A DNA stretch of 14,092 nt. Origin: a virus. The notes under the pieces were generated by a model. The model was not told where the DNA came from, did not search any database, and saw only the letters and a program-made list of their open reading frames with translations. The stretch lies in UHGV virus genome UHGV-0124555; one strand, given 5' to 3'. Below, in pieces: positions 2,358-14,092 of the stretch; position 1 is the first letter of the stretch; every line of letters begins with the position of its first letter. A program made the translations under genes and the position numbers.

Positions 2358-4299
2358 AACTATTAAAGATTTCCTCGTCTCGCTTGGCTTCAGTGTGGAT
2401 GATGCAGGAGCGAAAAAGTTCGGTTCTGTCCTCGCCGGTACAACTGCAAATGTCATCAAAATGGGGCTGGCTGTTGAAGGAGCTGCGCTGTCCGTGGTGG
2501 CCTTCACGGCTAAGATCGCCTCCGGCCTGGATAATCTTTACTGGGCGTCACAGCGCACCGGCGCGACAGTCCAGGGAATTCAGTCTATTGGCTATGCGGT
2601 TTCGCAGGTTGGCGGCAGCGTGGACGCTGCGCGATCTTCTCTGGAAAGCCTCTCCCGGTTTATTCGTAACAATCCCGGTGCAGAAGGCTTTCTGAATCGC
2701 CTGGGCGTACAGACCCGTGATGCCAGCGGTAACATGCGTGACATGGCCGCTATTTTTACAGGTGTAGGCCAGAAGCTCAGCGGCATGCCGTATTACCGGG
2801 CTAACCAGTATGCGCAGATGCTGGGCATTGACGAAAATACCCTTATGGCGATGCGCCGGGGTGTGGGTGATTTCTCCGGGCAGTACAGCGCAATGGCGAA
2901 AGCTATCGGCTTCAATGCTGACGAGGCTGCCTTATCGTCAAACCGGTTTATGACCTCGCTGAAATCGCTCGGTGAAATGGCCGGGATGGCGCGGGACAAA
3001 ATCGGATCGAATCTTGCGGACGGACTGGCGGGGCAGATTGATAACCTGCGCAAAAAGATAATTGAAAATTTTCCCAAAATTGAAGTCACCATCACAAAGG
3101 TCATAAAGGGGATCCTCTGGCTGGGTGAGATAGTCGGGCGGGTAGCATTTCGGATAGTCGATGGTGTCGGAGATATCATCGAGTGGTGGGGGAAACTGGA
3201 TGCCGAAACGAAAACCCTGATAGAGGTTATCGGCGGTCTGGTTGTCGCCATGCGGATACTTAACTCTACTTTCTGGATGTCACCTATAGGGCTGATTACC
3301 GGTCTGATCGTTGCTCTCGGTCTCTTGTGGGAAGACTACAAAACATGGAAAGAAGGCGGTAACAGTCTTATCGACTGGGAAAAATGGCAACCGGCAATAG
3401 ATAAAGCGAAGGATGCGATCACCTGGCTTCGTGATCACCTTCTGGAACTAAAAGATGGTGTTGGCGGCTGGCAAAATGCACTGGAGTTGCTGGCGACTTT
3501 TATCGCCGGAGTATGGATTAGCAAGGTCACAGGAGCATTTTCACGACTTGCAGGGATACCGGTCCCGCCGTGGTTAAAAGGCTGGATGGCTTATGCTGCG
3601 TATTTGTACTCCGATCGCGAAAATATTGGTGCCAGTGCGAAGTCATCCTGGGATTACACGAAACAAAATATTGGAGATTCATTGCGCTGGCTTGGCATTG
3701 ATACCGATTTTGGTCGTAATCCTCATATCGTAAAAGGCGCAAATATTCAGTCAGATATTCCAGGTGCTGAGCCGGAACAACATGCACAGGCTACGAAGCG
3801 TACTTTAGCCGATCGGAATAACAATCCAGGGAATATTCGCCCGGTGAGCGGCAAAGGGTTCCGGTTTTTCGAATCAGCTCTTGAGGGCTGGGAGGCGATG
3901 AAAAAACAGCTCATGCGTTACTTTACCGGGAAAACAACCGGACGGGCATTACAGACTATTCAGGATATTGTCAGTACCTGGGCCCCGGCAGGTGATAACA
4001 ACGATCCGAAAAAGTATGCACAGGATGTTGCGAAATGGATGGGAGTATCACCGAATGCAATATTGAATCTTACAGATCCCCAGACTATGGGTGCATTGAT
4101 GCAGTCGATGGCGCGAAAAGAAGGTTATTCAAACTGGAACAGCCCGCTGGCGTATCAGGCCGCCGCTGGCAGCCTTAACCAGCAGACTGTTATAAATGTT
4201 CATGGAGTTAACAACCCTCAGGAGGCGGCTAATCTGATCGCTGACAAGCAGGGGGCTGTAAATGCCAGGGCGGTACAGCAATTGAAAGGACCTGCGTAA
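2347..4299 (+). CDS. Tail tape measure protein
   Basis: Longest ORF in the module (650 aa from ATG 2347), directly after the chaperone pair. GGAGAGAGG RBS sits 5-6 nt upstream of ATG 2347; the ORF-track TTG at 2326 lacks an RBS. Long hydrophobic segments in the middle (for example LIEVIGGLVVAMRILNSTFWMSPIGLITGLIVALGLLW) are typical of tape measures. Confidence 0.8.
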   Translation: MNAETIKDFLVSLGFSVDDAGAKKFGSVLAGTTANVIKMGLAVEGAALSVVAFTAKIASGLDNLYWASQRTGATVQGIQSIGYAVSQVGGSVDAARSSLESLSRFIRNNPGAEGFLNRLGVQTRDASGNMRDMAAIFTGVGQKLSGMPYYRANQYAQMLGIDENTLMAMRRGVGDFSGQYSAMAKAIGFNADEAALSSNRFMTSLKSLGEMAGMARDKIGSNLADGLAGQIDNLRKKIIENFPKIEVTITKVIKGILWLGEIVGRVAFRIVDGVGDIIEWWGKLDAETKTLIEVIGGLVVAMRILNSTFWMSPIGLITGLIVALGLLWEDYKTWKEGGNSLIDWEKWQPAIDKAKDAITWLRDHLLELKDGVGGWQNALELLATFIAGVWISKVTGAFSRLAGIPVPPWLKGWMAYAAYLYSDRENIGASAKSSWDYTKQNIGDSLRWLGIDTDFGRNPHIVKGANIQSDIPGAEPEQHAQATKRTLADRNNNPGNIRPVSGKGFRFFESALEGWEAMKKQLMRYFTGKTTGRALQTIQDIVSTWAPAGDNNDPKKYAQDVAKWMGVSPNAILNLTDPQTMGALMQSMARKEGYSNWNSPLAYQAAAGSLNQQTVINVHGVNNPQEAANLIADKQGAVNARAVQQLKGPA

Positions 4300-5257: not shown

Positions 5258-6292
5258 ATGTCGAAAAACTGGATGCGTCACTTTGAATTATTGCTTGTTG
5301 ATGATAAGGGCGACGGGATAAAAATTTCTGAGCTTAAAGTCACTTTCAATATTCAGAAAATGCCTGCGAGCATATTTAATGGATTCGTTGGAAATTTTAA
5401 GGTTTATAACCTGTCCCCTACCACTCAGAACCGGATTATGCAAAAGGAGTTTTCGCGTATACAGGTTATTGCCGGATACAAGGGGCAACCGGATGCAGCA
5501 GGTAATTATCCTGATGAAAACGTTGGTATGATATTCAATGGAGATATCCGTTTTACTGTCACTGGTAAAGATAATGCCACAGACAGTTGGATCATGTTGC
5601 AGTGTATTGACAGCTGGGAAGGTCACCTGAACGCAAGTGTGAAAACCACAGTGGCAGCTGGCTGGAAGTACAGCGATCTTTTCAGTCTGGGTATGAAATC
5701 ATTCGAACCATATGGCATCGAATCCGGTGCAGTTCCTGACATGCCGGAAACGGTATTTCCCAGAGGTCGCGTTGTTTATCAAAACACATCAAGGTTGATG
5801 AATCATATCGCAGGGCAGTGTAAAGCTAACTGGTGGTATGAAAATAATCTGGTAAATATTGTTCCTGAAGATAAATATATTGGTGTTGCTACGGTGTTGA
5901 ATGCTAACACCGGGCTTATCGGTATGCCACAGCAGACGATGGGAGCTGGCGTAAATGTCAGATGTCTGATTAATCCAAATATTAAGCTCGGTGGGCTTAT
6001 TCGTCTGGATCAGGCATCTGTATACCGTGCCTCTTTGAGTAATGACCAGGTAGCGAAATCGCCAGCACGACTGGATGAGTCTGAAAGCGACGGTAATCTC
6101 TACGTTAACGGTCTGCCAGGCATGTCACAGCCTGCCAGCATTAATACTGACGGTGATTACATTGTGGGCAGCATTGATTATACTGGCGACACCCGAGGGC
6201 AGGCGTGGTATATGGACCTGCTTTGCCTGGCTAAAGGTGGCAAAGAACTATTGGCAAAAGGCACTTTGGACAAAGTCGGAGATGTAGAGTGA
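5258..6292 (+). CDS. Putative baseplate hub protein (Mu gp44/P2 gpD-like) by synteny
   Basis: 344-aa ORF starting 3 nt after the previous stop. Size and position match the hub gene that precedes the spike in Mu-type tails. The 5' portion looks AT-rich relative to flanking tail genes, so a mosaic origin is possible. Confidence 0.45.
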   Translation: MSKNWMRHFELLLVDDKGDGIKISELKVTFNIQKMPASIFNGFVGNFKVYNLSPTTQNRIMQKEFSRIQVIAGYKGQPDAAGNYPDENVGMIFNGDIRFTVTGKDNATDSWIMLQCIDSWEGHLNASVKTTVAAGWKYSDLFSLGMKSFEPYGIESGAVPDMPETVFPRGRVVYQNTSRLMNHIAGQCKANWWYENNLVNIVPEDKYIGVATVLNANTGLIGMPQQTMGAGVNVRCLINPNIKLGGLIRLDQASVYRASLSNDQVAKSPARLDESESDGNLYVNGLPGMSQPASINTDGDYIVGSIDYTGDTRGQAWYMDLLCLAKGGKELLAKGTLDKVGDVE

Positions 6293-6624
6293 AAAAAGTA
6301 TTTTTTTGTTTATTCTTGGCCCTGCCGTTAACAGTTTCGGCGGCAACGCAGTGCGGACCATTCCGCTTTGATGCTGGTAATGATGGCCTCATGCACATCA
6401 ATGGTCAAAAGCCAGAAACACAAAAAATGACCTTTTTGAAACAAAAAGACGATTTCGATAATGTCATGATGCAATGGATGTTACCTGATCCTAATACTGG
6501 ACGTTGGTTAGGTATGGACTACATCAAACGAAACAAAAAAGCGATCCTCAACGTTGAAGTTATCCGCAAAAATATGGACGAGCCTCGGGAGTTCTGGACG
6601 TATGATTGCCGGAAGGTTAAATGA
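6289..6624 (+). CDS. Secreted/periplasmic protein of unknown function (accessory 'moron'); signal peptide MKKVFFCLFLALPLTVSA|ATQ
   Basis: 111-aa ORF with a GTG start overlapping the hub stop (GTGA). The N-terminus has a basic n-region, hydrophobic core and VSA cleavage motif, with no lipobox. The mature part has Cys near each end. The gene is visibly AT-rich and has its own terminator. Confidence 0.55.
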   Translation: MKKVFFCLFLALPLTVSAATQCGPFRFDAGNDGLMHINGQKPETQKMTFLKQKDDFDNVMMQWMLPDPNTGRWLGMDYIKRNKKAILNVEVIRKNMDEPREFWTYDCRKVK

Positions 6625-6639: not shown

Positions 6640-6667
6640 AACCCACCGTCAGGTGGGTTTTTTGTTT
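6640..6667 (+). terminator. Rho-independent terminator after the signal-peptide gene
   Basis: Perfect 8-bp stem AACCCACC/GGTGGGTT with loop GTCA, followed by TTTTTTGTTT. The stop codon and last four codons (KKPT) of the convergent Mnt-like gene are encoded inside the hairpin and T-tract. Confidence 0.6.
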
Positions 6668-6969
6668 AGCAGTTCTCTCAACTTTTCGTTCTGCTCTCTG
6701 AACTTTTCCTGTATTTCTTTTTGCATGGCGATAACCTGGGCTTGAAGTTGAACTAGCGCATCAACATTTAGCGGAACCGAGACGCTGTTGATTTTGTCTG
6801 CTATTTCCCCAAGAGTATTTTCTGCATTCAAGGCATCTTCCAGTATCTGCACAATCTCTGAGTTCATTGATCTGCCGTTACGTTTAGCTCGTTCAGCTAT
6901 AGCATCTCGCATTCCGTCAGGAAAACGGAGGTTGAACTTGTCGTAGTCTTTTACTTGTTTTTCGGCCAT
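6649..6969 (-). CDS. mnt: Mnt-like ribbon-helix-helix (Arc/MetJ family) repressor with a C-terminal coiled-coil-like extension
   Basis: FNLRFPDGMRDAIAERAKRNGRSMNSEIVQILEDAL closely matches the P22 Mnt/Arc beta-strand and helix motif (FNxRxP ... NGRSxNSE), recalled from memory. The start is placed at ATG 6969 (MAEKQVKDYDKFNLRFP) rather than the ORF-track 6993. The C-terminal 60 aa are rich in Q/E/K/L. The gene is divergent from the arc-like gene, as in P22 immI. Confidence 0.7.
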   Translation of the reverse strand: MAEKQVKDYDKFNLRFPDGMRDAIAERAKRNGRSMNSEIVQILEDALNAENTLGEIADKINSVSVPLNVDALVQLQAQVIAMQKEIQEKFREQNEKLRELLNKKPT

Positions 6970-7076
6970 TGCAAATCTCTCAAAAAAAATCATGGTGCCA
7001 TATTGCCATATGATTTCAATGGTGGCATTATGGCCTTCATGGTGTCACTTTGGCACCAAATAAAGGAGATTAGATA
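6970..7076. promoter_or_regulatory. Divergent promoter/operator region between the mnt-like and arc-like genes (candidate Pant and Pmnt)
   Basis: Rightward candidate promoter: -35 TTGCCA (7003-7008), 17-bp spacer, -10 CATTAT (7026-7031). Leftward candidate -10 CATAAT sits on the - strand at 7027-7032. Repeats present: tandem TGCCATAT x2 (6996-7011), ATGGTG x3 (6992, 7019, 7039), and inverted pair GGTGCCA (6994-7000) / TGGCACC (7051-7057). AAGGAG RBS at 7063-7068. Confidence 0.4.
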
Positions 7077-7250
7077 ATGCAAGATACACTTTTCACTGAG
7101 CGCAAAAATATCAAACTCAACCTTCGCCTTCCATCACGGCTGAATGAAGACCTTCGCCGCCTGGCGGAAATGGACTGTATATCTCTGAACTCTGCAATTG
7201 TTCGTTTGCTGGCAAAAGGTGTTAGGGAAGAGGTGGCGAATGGTCGCTAA
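7077..7250 (+). CDS. arc: Arc-like ribbon-helix-helix repressor (57 aa; absent from the ORF track)
   Basis: Hand translation gives MQDTLFTERKNIKLNLRLPSRLNEDLRRLAEMDCISLNSAIVRLLAKGVREEVANGR*. AAGGAG RBS lies 8 nt upstream. The NLRLP beta-strand and SLNSAI helix follow the Arc pattern, and the gene sits directly upstream of the antirepressor-like gene as in P22 arc-ant. Confidence 0.7.
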   Translation: MQDTLFTERKNIKLNLRLPSRLNEDLRRLAEMDCISLNSAIVRLLAKGVREEVANGR

Positions 7251-7321
7251 AAACAGCGAAGCCCCGACAGCGGGAACTGGCGAGGCTTCTACATCAACAA
7301 ATCTGATCGGGAAATATTGAC
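7251..7321 (-). ncRNA. Candidate sar-like cis-antisense small RNA covering the antirepressor RBS and start codon
   Basis: Minus-strand candidate promoter inside the 5' end of the antirepressor gene: -10 TATACT (complement of 7328-7333), 17-bp spacer, -35 GTGAAA (complement of 7351-7356). Minus-strand terminator: stem GAAGCC (7258-7263) / GGCTTC (7284-7289) followed on the - strand by GCTGTTTTT. Predicted transcript is about 70 nt, analogous to P22 sar. Confidence 0.3.
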
Positions 7322-8200
7322 ATGAAAAGTATAGCAAAGACACAAAACGATTTCACCATCTTCAAATTCGGCGACAGTGAAATCCGCGTCATCAACAAGT
7401 GCGGTGAGCCGTGGTTTGTAGCTAAAGATGTTTGTGATGCTTTAGCTTTGACTAACTCACGCAAGGCGCTTACTGCACTTGATGACGATGAAAAGGGAGT
7501 AACTTTAAGTTACACCCTTGGTGGTGAGCAGAATTTAAGCATTGTGAGCGAATCAGGTATGTATACATTGGTTTTGCGCTGCCGCGATGCCGTCAATAAA
7601 GGTTCAGTCCCGCACAAATTCCGCAAGTGGGTAACAGCAGAAGTTCTGCCTTCAATTCGCAAATATGGCGAGTATGTGAAAGGCAAGAAAACCACAGTTG
7701 AAGAAAGAACACCGCTACGCGATGCAGTAAACATGCTGGTAGGAAAGAAAGGACTTCGCTATGACGATGCATACAATATGGTTCATCAGCGTTTTGGTAT
7801 TGACAGCATTGATGAACTTTCAATTGAACAAATCCCGCTGGCCGTAGAGTACATCCACAGGGTGGTGCTTGAAGGTGAGTTCATTGGCAAGCAAGAGAAG
7901 AAAGCAAACGAGCTTTCTGCAAAAGAAGCAAACAGTCTTGTATGGTTATGGGATTATGCCAACCGCTCACAGGCATTATTCCGCGAACTGTATCCGGCAT
8001 TAAAACAAATTCAATCGAACTATTCCGGAAGATGCTACGACTACGGTCATGAGTTTTCGTATGTTATCGGAATGGCGAGAGACGTTTTAATCAACCACAC
8101 ACGAGATGTTGATATCAATGAGCCAGGCGGACCAACGAATCTTTCCGCATGGGTAAGGCTTAAGAACAAAGAGTTGCCGCCTTCACTGCATCGCTACTGA
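7322..8200 (+). CDS. ant: Bro-N domain protein, putative antirepressor (P22 Ant-like); a KilA-N-type abortive-infection protein (BstA-like) is an alternative
   Basis: 292-aa ORF. The N-terminal about 110 aa carry the Bro-N signature ([32 protein letters not shown] ... LDDDEK). The C-terminal about 180 aa have no motif I recognise. The gene lies directly downstream of the arc-like gene and is visibly AT-rich. Confidence 0.6.
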
Positions 8201-8216
8201 CAATTGACAACTTAAC

Positions 8217-8242
8217 AAACCCAGCTTCTGCTGGGTTTTTTA
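8217..8242 (+). terminator. Rho-independent terminator after the antirepressor-like gene
   Basis: Perfect 8-bp stem AACCCAGC/GCTGGGTT with loop TTCT, followed by a T-run. The stem is nearly identical to the terminator at 6640-6667. Confidence 0.6.
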
Positions 8243-8260: not shown

Positions 8261-9016
8261 ATGCCCGTTTCTTTAATCGCTCAACTTGGTAGCAAAGAAC
8301 AGGCCGATGTAAGACTTGCTGGCTCTGTCATGTCGGCGCTGCGTGTTTCTATGCCCGGCATCGTCCAGTCATTTGATCCGGACACGGTAACAGTGGTTGT
8401 TCAACCTGCGATTAAAGGCTATGAGCCGGACTCAAATGGAATCAACCAGTCGACGACATTACCCCTGCTGGTGGATGTACCAGTGGTATTCCCGCGCGGC
8501 GGAGGCTGTACGTTGACTTTTCCGGTTAAAGCCGGGGATGAATGCCTGGTGATTTTCGCCGACCGCTGCATCGATTTCTGGTGGCAGAACGGCGGGGTGC
8601 AGGAGCCTGTCGACGACCGGGTGCATGATTTATCGGATGCTTTCTGTATCGTCGGGCCGCAGTCTCAGGCGCAGAAAATAAGCGGAATAAGCACCAGTGG
8701 CGCGCAGCTGCGTACTGATGATGGCGCTGCGTTTGTGGAAGTGGCCGCAGGCCATAACATCACGGTTAAAACTCCCGGCGCGTTGACGGCGACAGCAGAA
8801 GGAGGAACCACGATCACATCACCCACCATCACGCTAAACGGCAACGTGACAATAAACGGGAATCTCTCTCAGGGGATGGGCGAAAGCGGCGGCACCGCGA
8901 CGATGCTTGGCCCTGTCACGGTGACTAACGATGTAAAAGCTGGTGGTAAGAGCCTGATGACGCACACGCACGGCGGAGTACAGACCGGCGGCGGTAACAC
9001 AGGAGCGCCTAACTGA
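8261..9016 (+). CDS. Baseplate central spike / assembly protein V (Mu gp45 / P2 gpV-like)
   Basis: 251-aa ORF with GGAGA RBS 7 nt upstream. The C-terminal half is Gly/Thr-rich and repetitive (TVKTPGALTATAEGGTTITSPTITLNGNVTINGN), like a beta-helical spike. It ends with an H-x-H motif (MTHTHGG), matching the metal-binding apex of gpV-type spikes. Confidence 0.7.
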   Translation: MPVSLIAQLGSKEQADVRLAGSVMSALRVSMPGIVQSFDPDTVTVVVQPAIKGYEPDSNGINQSTTLPLLVDVPVVFPRGGGCTLTFPVKAGDECLVIFADRCIDFWWQNGGVQEPVDDRVHDLSDAFCIVGPQSQAQKISGISTSGAQLRTDDGAAFVEVAAGHNITVKTPGALTATAEGGTTITSPTITLNGNVTINGNLSQGMGESGGTATMLGPVTVTNDVKAGGKSLMTHTHGGVQTGGGNTGAPN

Positions 9017-12719: not shown

Positions 12720-13877
12720 TCACTCCACCTTTTCATCAATCCAATCCGCCCACCATTGCATCATTTCTCTGCGTTTATCGAGATACTGCGCATGGTTGTA
12801 AATCCCGCGCACAGAACCGCCGTTGGCATGTGCCAGTTGCACTTCAATAGCGTCAGCAGGCCATTCGTGCTCGTTCATAATCGTGCTGAATTCATGCCTG
12901 AATCCGTGACCGCTTTCCAGACCTTCATAGCCGATTTGTTTGATCACAAGCAATACCGCGTTCTCGCAGATTGGCTTCTTCTTATCGTTGCGCCCGGCAA
13001 AAACAAACTCTGAGACTGGTTTGGTGATTGAGCTTAGCGTAGTGAGAAGTTCAACCACCTGGTCTGACATCGGGACCACATGAATTTTGCGTCCCTTCAT
13101 CACACTGGCGTCGATGGTGATAATCCTGTTTTCAAAATCGACGTTCTTCCATAGCATGGAACGAAGCTCTTTCGTTCTTAGGGCTGTATAACGTAAAACT
13201 TTTGTCGCAATGAGCGATACGATACTTCCTGAAAATGTTGCCAGTGCTTTGTTGAATGCAGGCACCTGGTCTGCTGGAAGGAACGGGAAGTTCTTCTTGC
13301 GGTATCCTTTCATGGCGTCTGCAAGGTCAGGTGCCGGGTTATATTTAGCCCTTCCGGTGACAATAGCGTAACGAAAAACCTCGCCGCATCTTCTGCGGGC
13401 TTTGTTGGCTCGCTCCATTGCACCGCGATCTTCAAATCTGCGGATTACTTCCAGCAGTTGCATCGGCTCAATATCCTGAATCTCAAGACCGCCGATGATG
13501 GGTAAAATGTCGTCATCAAACATTTTGGCAAGTTCAGTTGCATAGCCTACTGACCAGACTTGCTTCTTGTGCTCGTACCATTCCTTGTAAATCGCACTAA
13601 ATGAATTGTTGTTAGACGAAGCCTTTTTCGCCTTTACCGGATCGATGCCAACCGAGATGTCTTTCCTCGCAGTCCATGCCTTATCCCTTGCTTCCTGCAA
13701 AGTCATAAGCGGATATTTTCCGACGGTCAGGATTTTCTCCTTACCGTCAATCTTGTAGCGAAGCTGCCATACCTTTTTCCCGGATACAGGAACATAAAGG
13801 TACAGGCCATTACCATCGAGAAGGCGGTATGGTTTTTCTTTCGGCTTTGCTGCTTCAATCTGCTTAACGGTGAGCAT
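12720..13877 (-). CDS. int: Tyrosine recombinase / phage integrase (P4-type)
   Basis: The N-terminus MLTVKQIEAAKPKEKPYRLLDGNGLYLYV matches the P4-type integrase arm-binding signature. The C-terminus has HGFRHEF ... LAHANGGSVRGIYNHAQY, consistent with the catalytic H-x-x-R and Tyr. It lies next to a tRNA gene. Start is placed at ATG 13877; the ORF-track GTG at 13913 is an alternative. Confidence 0.9.
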   Translation of the reverse strand: MLTVKQIEAAKPKEKPYRLLDGNGLYLYVPVSGKKVWQLRYKIDGKEKILTVGKYPLMTLQEARDKAWTARKDISVGIDPVKAKKASSNNNSFSAIYKEWYEHKKQVWSVGYATELAKMFDDDILPIIGGLEIQDIEPMQLLEVIRRFEDRGAMERANKARRRCGEVFRYAIVTGRAKYNPAPDLADAMKGYRKKNFPFLPADQVPAFNKALATFSGSIVSLIATKVLRYTALRTKELRSMLWKNVDFENRIITIDASVMKGRKIHVVPMSDQVVELLTTLSSITKPVSEFVFAGRNDKKKPICENAVLLVIKQIGYEGLESGHGFRHEFSTIMNEHEWPADAIEVQLAHANGGSVRGIYNHAQYLDKRREMMQWWADWIDEKVE

Positions 13878-13913
13878 GGGTAAAAATCCGGTGGGTAAAA
13901 TTATTTTATCCAC

Positions 13914-14038: not shown

Positions 14039-14092
14039 TGGTGTCCCCTGCAGGAATCGAACCTGCAATTAGCCCTTAGGAGGGGCTCGTTA
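14039..14092 (-). tRNA. argW: tRNA-Arg (anticodon CCU), 3' 54 nt; the 5' part lies beyond the window edge
   Basis: The reverse complement reads TAACGAGCCCCTCCTAAGGGCTAATTGCAGGTTCGATTCCTGCAGGGGACACCA. It shows an anticodon stem AGCCC/GGGCT with loop CUCCUAA (anticodon CCU), a T-arm GCAGG-TTCGATT-CCTGC, and acceptor 3' strand plus CCA. This matches enterobacterial argW from memory. Confidence 0.85.

Follow-up and report, generated by a model that had tools for sequence, protein, structure and literature searches.

The stretch of DNA analysed here, hereafter the window, is the whole 14,092-nucleotide (nt) sequence of UHGV virus genome UHGV-0124555, a prophage segment that extends from contractile-tail and baseplate genes through to an integrase gene and a tRNA at the end of the window. 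Three intact open reading frames lie in it in the order mnt-arc-ant, as in phage P22, and the subject of this work is a predicted antisense RNA gene of the type of P22 sar, with its promoter (Psar), located between the last two. The mnt-like gene (6649–6969, minus strand) codes for an Arc-family repressor of 106 amino acids (aa), recognised both by Pfam (Arc, E = 1.4e-20) and by RefSeq annotation, and diverges from the arc-like gene (7077–7250, plus strand), whose 57-aa ribbon-helix-helix product (Pfam Arc, PF03869, E = 1.4e-4) is named Arc family DNA-binding protein in RefSeq. The arc stop codon TAA (7248–7250) is separated by a 71-nt spacer from the antirepressor gene ant (7322–8200, plus strand), whose ATG (7322–7324) is the first in-frame start after a stop and is preceded by a Shine-Dalgarno (SD)-like GGGAAA at 7309–7314. 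The 292-aa product carries, according to Pfam, an N-terminal Bro-N domain and a P22_AR_C domain, and it shares 85% identity with P22 Ant over its C-terminal 171 aa.

An earlier reading of the sequence alone, referred to here as the original prediction, had placed a minus-strand promoter inside the first codons of ant, and all its elements were found there by promoter scan and inspection of the sequence. The −35 hexamer GTGAAA (7351–7356), which matches TTGACA at four of six positions, lies over ant codons 10–12 and is followed after 17 nt by an extended −10 element (7328–7336) composed of TG (7336–7335), a C and TATACT (7333–7328), so that nine of the 12 consensus positions are matched. The −10 hexamer covers ant codons 3–4, and the extended −10 element coincides with codons 3–5 (AGT ATA GCA).

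Downstream of this promoter, an antisense RNA of 69–73 nt is predicted on the minus strand at 7249–7321 from the Rfam match, a covariance model of our own (R1), the fold and the extent of P22 sar. Its 5′ end would be G7321 (±1–2 nt), one base from the ant ATG, and its 3′ end would fall inside a U-run at 7253–7249. The RNA had originally been described as lying over the translation start of ant, which holds for the ribosome-binding site (RBS) and the 5′ untranslated region (UTR), both of which are covered, but not for the ATG itself, which the 5′ end abuts without overlapping it, as in P22. In the minimum free energy (MFE) fold, the 5′ part of the RNA (7293–7321) forms stem-loop I, with a stem of seven pairs (GUCAAUA/UGUUGAU) and a loop carrying UUUCCC, the complement of the ant SD sequence. 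The fold and the Rfam alignment both give stem-loop II at 7258–7289, which is the putative terminator hairpin and reads GAAGCCUCG-C-CAGU, a UCCC loop and GCUG-U-CGGGGCUUC; its two strands, GAAGCCUCGCCAGU-UCCC-GCUGUCGGGGCUUC, form 13 standard pairs and one C·U mismatch around the 4-nt loop. The tail that follows (7249–7257) consists of GCUG and UUUUU, the U5 run overlapping the arc stop codon.

The GAAGCC/GGCTTC hairpin and minus-strand T-run that had been noticed in the arc-ant spacer are thus present, from 7289 to 7258 and then as U5, and the folding of this region, which had been proposed as a check, gave a stable hairpin of −18.8 kcal/mol on its own. A minus-strand stretch of 78 nt folded into the two hairpins with −29.9 kcal/mol (z = −5.4); of 200 shuffles that kept the dinucleotide composition, not one reached this stability. 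A sub-optimal, inner register of six pairs (7278–7260) reported by the terminator scan was not used to define the hairpin. Model R1, whose seed contains the window, scored 75.6 bits at 7321–7246, which was the only match above 11 bits in the window.

When 701 nt around the site were searched with reporting by E-value, the Rfam model of sar RNA (RF00262) matched the minus strand from 7320 to 7255 over model positions 1–68 (30.2 bits, E = 5.5e-4) with both helices kept, and the MFE fold was identical to the structure aligned by Rfam. When the window was aligned directly with the annotated immI region of P22, the two proved to be laid out alike. In each, the −10 hexamer (TATACT) occupies positions +6 to +11 from the ATG and is preceded by TTGC, with the −35 hexamer 17 nt upstream; TTGCTATACT is identical at equal distance from the ATG, and TTGCTATACT..TTCATGT is conserved. 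The 5′ end, annotated in P22 and predicted in the window, is in both cases a G directly adjoining the ant ATG, after which come a 5′ segment of 32 nt (stem-loop I, with the anti-SD sequence in its loop) and a 32-nt hairpin GAAGCC...GGCTTC. The annotated P22 RNA ends at the arc stop codon, the RNA predicted in the window would have the same extent, and both are flanked by genes for Mnt-like, Arc-like and Ant (P22_AR_C) proteins. The length reported for P22 sar is 68/69 nt (PMC12197685). The end-to-end match to RF00262 and this shared layout support the idea, already put forward in the original prediction, of an antisense RNA of about 70 nt complementary to the ant RBS as in P22.

The two elements have nevertheless diverged. 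The RF00262 score of the window (30.2 bits) is far below that of P22 (97.8 bits); stem I reads GUCAAUA/UGUUGAU in the window and GUUGGU/ACUGAC in P22, with a register one base apart; and the inner half of hairpin II differs from that of P22 at five positions and contains the C·U mismatch. The annotated P22 sar terminator has the tail AACUUU, whereas the U5 of the window is longer than the P22 U-run. The P22 −35 hexamer is GTGTTA, at the same offset as GTGAAA in the window, and the −10, TG and −35 elements of the window match or surpass their P22 counterparts. Outside the RNA, the Arc protein of the window shares just 30% identity (over 40 aa) with that of P22, Bro-N takes the place of the N-terminal domain of P22 Ant, and the host element is a contractile-tail prophage of the argW/IntS site of Escherichia coli, whereas P22 is a podovirus. 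The minus-strand element at 7249–7356 very probably belongs to the P22 sar family as a divergent representative, and would consist of a sigma-70 promoter Psar of constitutive type together with a cis-antisense RNA gene.

All 13 phage loci tested had an RF00262 match in antisense orientation in the arc-ant spacer, with scores of 24–98 bits, among them 97.8 in P22, 95.6 in epsilon34, 72.4 in Kapi1, 61.7 in Emek, 38.6 in Klebsiella phi6.1, 29.5 in JLK-2012 and 24.2 in Oslo; the window, with 30.2 bits, falls within this range. As these scores are continuous over elements in one genetic position, the 43-bit gathering cutoff of the family splits a single homologous family; it is a curated operational threshold and not a biological feature. 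Because the window scores below it, standard annotation misses its sar gene. Sensitive BLAST with 126 nt retrieved 36 phage records, the hosts being Escherichia, Salmonella, Klebsiella and Edwardsiella, and a pattern scan of IMG/VR, in which nothing was fixed but the outer stem and some bases of the loop, yielded at least 120 further loci. Among the matches listed, CAT, the complement of the ant start, lay 24–45 nt upstream of the hairpin in 128 of 133 occurrences. Of the five without it, L017, L029, L106 and L116 looked unrelated by eye and were rejected, and the fifth, L063, is a sar of JLK type with a mutated ant start codon. When 80 loci were picked solely by the C-terminal domain of Ant, without use of the RNA, an antisense covariance-model match just upstream of ant was found in 79, and the remaining locus had no upstream DNA.

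Conservation of the structure was assessed in an alignment of 81 distinct sequences made with MAFFT and not fitted to the structure (A3) and in a second one fitted to the model (A4). In the former, 98.5% of the cells of hairpin II were paired, whereas sliding the 3′ partners by 1–3 columns reduced pairing to less than 50% in all controls. Compensatory changes were seen at four pairs of this hairpin for which both positions had been left free (N) in the retrieval pattern, one position occurring as U-A, G-C and A-U, and TTT in the tail was nearly invariant. Pairing of stem I by columns was lower (72–75%) because P22-type sequences are one base out of register in both alignments, and for this reason stem I was judged by folding each distinct 5′ segment. 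All 51 of these formed a hairpin that started 0–4 nt from the base after CAT, mostly at that base, with a mean energy of −6.6 kcal/mol on the sar strand compared to −2.6 on the opposite strand and z < −1.5 in 45 cases. The loops carried UUCC or CUCC, complementary to the ant SD sequence, and in the model-fitted alignment all seven stem I pairs were found changed on both sides.

The pairing was also strand-dependent. Owing to G·U pairs, helix II was paired in 98.5% of cells on the minus strand vs. 78.7% on the plus strand, and the corresponding values for helix I were 72% and 56%, a bias which argues that the structure has been selected in the antisense transcript and not in the mRNA. On the plus strand of the window, no T-run follows the hairpin.

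The promoter was similarly conserved. In 56 distinct promoter regions anchored on CAT, the −10 hexamer followed the pattern T47 A46. A47. T49, TG was present upstream of it at a fixed offset (40 and 46 of the 56), and the −35 consensus was (G/T)TGA(A/T)A with a 17-nt spacer. The consequences for the coding sequence on the other strand were examined in 62 distinct ant 5′ ends, which represent 48 different peptides and several unrelated N-terminal families. Codon 4 was NTA in 52 of them (ATA 28, TTA 15, GTA 9), which amounts to 52 of the 54 sequences with isoleucine, leucine or valine at this position, any other codon for these residues being used only twice. Serine at codon 3 was encoded by AGT in 39 cases and by AGC in two, never by TCN; ANT at codon 3 was combined with NTA at codon 4 in 52 of the 62, and codon 5 was GCA 40 times. 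Such fixation on particular, mostly rare codons across unrelated N-termini points to a constraint at the level of the DNA and not of the protein, and agrees with the expectation for a TAnnnT/TG promoter conserved on the other strand. As the −10 hexamer corresponds to codons 3–4 and the TG to codon 5, unrelated Ant families begin with M-x-S-[I/L/V]-A. Across the relatives (L002–L134) and the window, the almost exclusive use of AGT, NTA and GCA at codons 3–5 by unrelated Ant families is an observation in its own right.

The assignment to the sar family is thus supported here by the sequence elements, by homology and geometry, by covariation, by the strand bias of pairing and by the codon constraint on the promoter. 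Several points weigh against it. The search of the whole window at the Rfam gathering threshold gave no sar match (30.2 vs. the cutoff of 43 bits), and no non-coding RNA is annotated at the site in the three RefSeq records inspected. The C·U mismatch in stem II and a U-run that begins 4 nt past the stem make the intrinsic terminator non-ideal. The −35 hexamer has only four of six consensus bases, and four promoter-like sites occur in 2 kb where 2.8 ± 1.4 are expected, so that the Psar match taken alone is not above chance; it is homology and the conserved position that raise it above this level. The window itself is included in R1, A3 and A4, the retrieval pattern fixed the outer stem (GAAGCC/GGYTTY), A4 was fitted to the model, and many relatives are closely related, so that counts of cells make independent events seem more numerous than they are. 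Finally, the ends of the transcript, its expression in this prophage and the repression of ant by pairing are carried over by analogy from P22.

Three other readings of the locus were weighed against these data. Psar points head-on to Pant and to the late operon, with a candidate Pant at 7003–7031 about 300 nt away, and conservation of the promoter is no weaker than that of the RNA body; the RNA could consequently be made and yet be secondary, the main effect being transcriptional interference or collision over the 71-nt spacer, in which convergent transcription from Psar meets polymerases from Pant or from the late operon and lowers the amount of full-length ant mRNA. However, pure interference does not require the two helices, both of which have compensatory changes and are under selection on the sar strand, and a review describes P22 sar as acting through pairing with ant mRNA (PMC12197685), which makes this reading improbable. 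Still less probable is an inert remnant, that is, a sar homologue by descent whose promoter or terminator is dead and which yields no functional RNA. The low Rfam score, the mismatch in the hairpin and the rarity of the exact variant, found at 99% identity or more in only four of 5426 E. coli genomes, would fit decay. In contrast, the mnt, arc and ant reading frames are intact, the promoter elements look no worse than those of P22 (GTGAAA vs. GTGTTA), and the U5 of the terminator is longer than in P22. Moreover, the changes with respect to the hairpin of P22 and Kapi1 largely keep the pairing (U-A to A-U, U-G to C-G, G-U to G-C), and reading of the alignment by eye revealed a mismatch at the same stem position in Edno5 and Oslo.

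The last reading assigns the hairpin to the plus-strand arc-ant mRNA, as an attenuator, a processing site or a stability element, and takes the promoter as a chance match arising from the codons of Ant. The hairpin does form on the plus strand (−13.6 kcal/mol), and the regional promoter count is not above chance. Against this stand the better pairing of helix II on the minus strand (98.5%, compared with 78.7% on the plus strand), the lack of a T-run after the hairpin on the plus strand of the window, the fixation of ant codons 3–5 on AGT, NTA and GCA across unrelated N-termini, and the fact that in P22 the homologue has been established by experiment as an RNA of the minus strand (PMC12197685, PMC13397905). 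We consider this reading extremely unlikely.

For an antisense RNA of the sar type that pairs with ant mRNA, the following course of events may be proposed. RNA polymerase would initiate around G7321, a single base away from the ATG of ant, transcribe leftwards over the 71-nt arc-ant spacer and terminate intrinsically at the arc stop, at the hairpin 7289–7258 and the U-run 7253–7249, giving a product of 69–73 nt. This RNA would be fully complementary to the ant 5′ UTR and would expose UUUCCC, the anti-SD sequence, in the loop of its 5′ stem-loop. Its pairing with the arc-ant mRNA would, as in P22, occlude the RBS and block translation of Ant, thus adding a post-transcriptional lock to the repression of Pant by Mnt and Arc. 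This mechanism has been textbook knowledge for P22 since 1987; convergent transcription from Pant is reported to stimulate P22 Psar (Liao et al. 1987), a point not used as evidence here, and P22 sar is reported to repress also when supplied in trans (Wu et al. 1987), which speaks against interference as the main mode. By analogy with P22, a block of Ant translation by the antisense RNA is the most likely function. The lock would be of greatest importance for transcripts coming into the cassette from the tail/baseplate (late) operon upstream, and the most plausible role of the RNA would be to keep Ant off on such read-through transcripts, which Mnt and Arc would be unable to repress. In P22, sar base-pairs to the mRNA of ant and blocks antirepressor synthesis (PMC12197685), and it has been detected by small-RNA sequencing of infection (PMC13397905); arc and ant of P22-like phages are also transcribed from the late promoter (PMC12111858).

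Some relatives of the element are mosaic with respect to it. Kapi1, EC.P3, PhiR12 and lambdoid prophages of E. coli O157 are 84–87% identical to the window over Psar and the RNA and share its ant N-terminus (MKSIAK...) and stem I, but carry the P22-type hairpin II (CCCTGACTG/CAGTTGGGG) and score 64–72 bits, above the Rfam cutoff; sar is unannotated in their records, and their arc genes and virion modules are unlike those of the window. Joints of the mosaic thus fall inside sar itself, Kapi1, EC.P3 and PhiR12 combining the Psar and stem I of the window with the P22-type hairpin II; their loop I differs from that of the window at a few bases (window 7258–7360 compared with L003, L004, which is Kapi1, and L005). 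Locus L021 has the exact stem-loop I and hairpin II of the window together with another ant N-terminus and another arc 3′ end. Among 5426 complete E. coli genomes, 455 matched the 115-nt stretch of Psar and sar with an identity of 80% or more, and most of these had the variant of 83–90%, for instance O157:H7, where EDL933/Sakai has an 84% identical copy beside the tail gene L. The 115 nt are fully identical in E. coli 2013C-4991, which carries this prophage, as do ES3 and 5CRE51.

Two further loci were observed in the course of these comparisons. In L063, a sar-like element of the JLK-2012 type (3122–3196) is intact (66.7 bits), while the ATG start of ant is mutated to ATA, and the antirepressor may be silenced. 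The IMG/VR contig L041 has two tandem antirepressor-type open reading frames (about 1620–2408 and 2494–3531), each with its own sar-like element on the minus strand (1626–1700 and 2570–2649; R1 scores of 56.6 and 52.8 bits) and a promoter of the TATACT type.

By its sequence features, the mnt-arc-ant cassette corresponds to the immI or "ant moron" layout that has been described for P22-like phages (PMC2629481), since divergent Mnt-like and Arc-like genes are followed by ant within the late operon, with terminator-like hairpins on both sides. The cassette (6640–8238) lies between baseplate genes (6289–6624 and 8261–9016) in the orientation of the late virion operon. Its left edge is a plus-strand terminator-like hairpin at 6640–6659 and its right edge a second one directly after ant (8217–8238, plus strand), both from the terminator scan, and a terminator is annotated at the position equivalent to the latter in P22, epsilon34 and Emek. 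The mnt-arc-sar-ant cassette of P22 has gene 16/sieA on one side and the tailspike gene on the other, and that of E. coli O157 EDL933 (L135) is located between the lambdoid tail genes L and K; the presence of the cassette in contractile-tail, P22 and lambdoid contexts indicates a single regulatory moron in three virion types.

The putative control region between mnt and arc spans 6990–7058. By consensus matches, the candidate Pant (7003–7031, plus strand) and a candidate Pmnt (7056–7027, minus strand) lie face-to-face with overlapping −10 hexamers (7026–7032), arranged differently from those of P22, and three ATGGTGNCA repeats with inverted-repeat relations in this region may be Arc/Mnt operators. 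A second plus-strand promoter match (7050–7078) was not taken as Pant, as it overlaps the SD sequence and ATG of arc. At the other end of the window, the integrase gene (12720–13913, minus strand) codes for 397 aa and is named IntS in related genomes, and the 5′-truncated tRNA (14042–14092) is the only match to Rfam at the gathering threshold in the whole window. The best E. coli matches place the prophage at the tRNA-Arg/IntS site beside yfdC, and as tRNA-Arg is annotated beside yfdC in related genomes, the window closes with the right end of a prophage of the argW site. In some relatives there are glucosyltransferase or acyltransferase genes between the tail fibre gene and int.

No discussion of sar other than for P22 and P22-like phages was found in the literature searched, and the present data add a missing regulatory gene to the annotation of an E. 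coli prophage family. A broader reading, possible although rather doubtful, is that sar is no peculiarity of P22 but the constant core of an antirepressor cassette that travels widely among Enterobacterales phages (Escherichia, Salmonella, Klebsiella, Edwardsiella), carried in late operons of podovirus, siphovirus and myovirus type. If this were true, the embedded promoter would dictate the M-x-S-[I/L/V]-A start of otherwise unrelated antirepressors, the sar gene would be a recombination joint between arc and ant modules, and the types of stem-loop I (window/Kapi1, P22, JLK-2012, Klebsiella phi8.1 and others) would be specificity classes. In that event, a prophage sar could silence in trans only the antirepressors of the same class from incoming or co-resident phages, an RNA-level layer of immunity analogous to the heteroimmunity of P1/P7 c4. 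Antirepressors trigger prophage induction and the cross-induction of co-resident prophages, including Stx phages, so that antisense gating with distinct sequence classes is relevant for predicting induction behaviour. As the mechanism has been known for P22 since 1987, little is gained conceptually; of more interest are some by-products, namely how broad and mosaic the family is, the N-terminus imposed by the promoter and the possible specificity classes of stem-loop I.

Comparable antisense control is found in other systems. The c4 RNA of P1 and P7 resembles the RNA of the window as a small phage RNA directed against antirepressor synthesis through pairing in the RBS region, but arises by processing of the transcript that also contains its target, from a part upstream of the target, and is not transcribed from the opposite strand. 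The window gave no Rfam match to c4, and no sequence or structural homology was found between c4 and the window RNA. In immI of these phages (c4-icd-ant), c4 blocks antirepressor synthesis by pairing at the RBS region of the ant operon (PMC12197685). Plasmid countertranscript RNAs such as ctRNA_pGA1 (RF00236) share the general architecture of the window RNA, in which a short hairpin at the 5′ end is followed by a long, GC-rich terminator hairpin and a U-run, and likewise lie antisense to a leader/RBS; membership in this family was rejected (21 bits, E = 0.11, vs. a cutoff of 45 bits; unrelated context and target), and the resemblance is treated as convergent design. The element of the window is what would be expected in a regulatory cassette already known, that of P22 immI, and does not represent a new kind of element.

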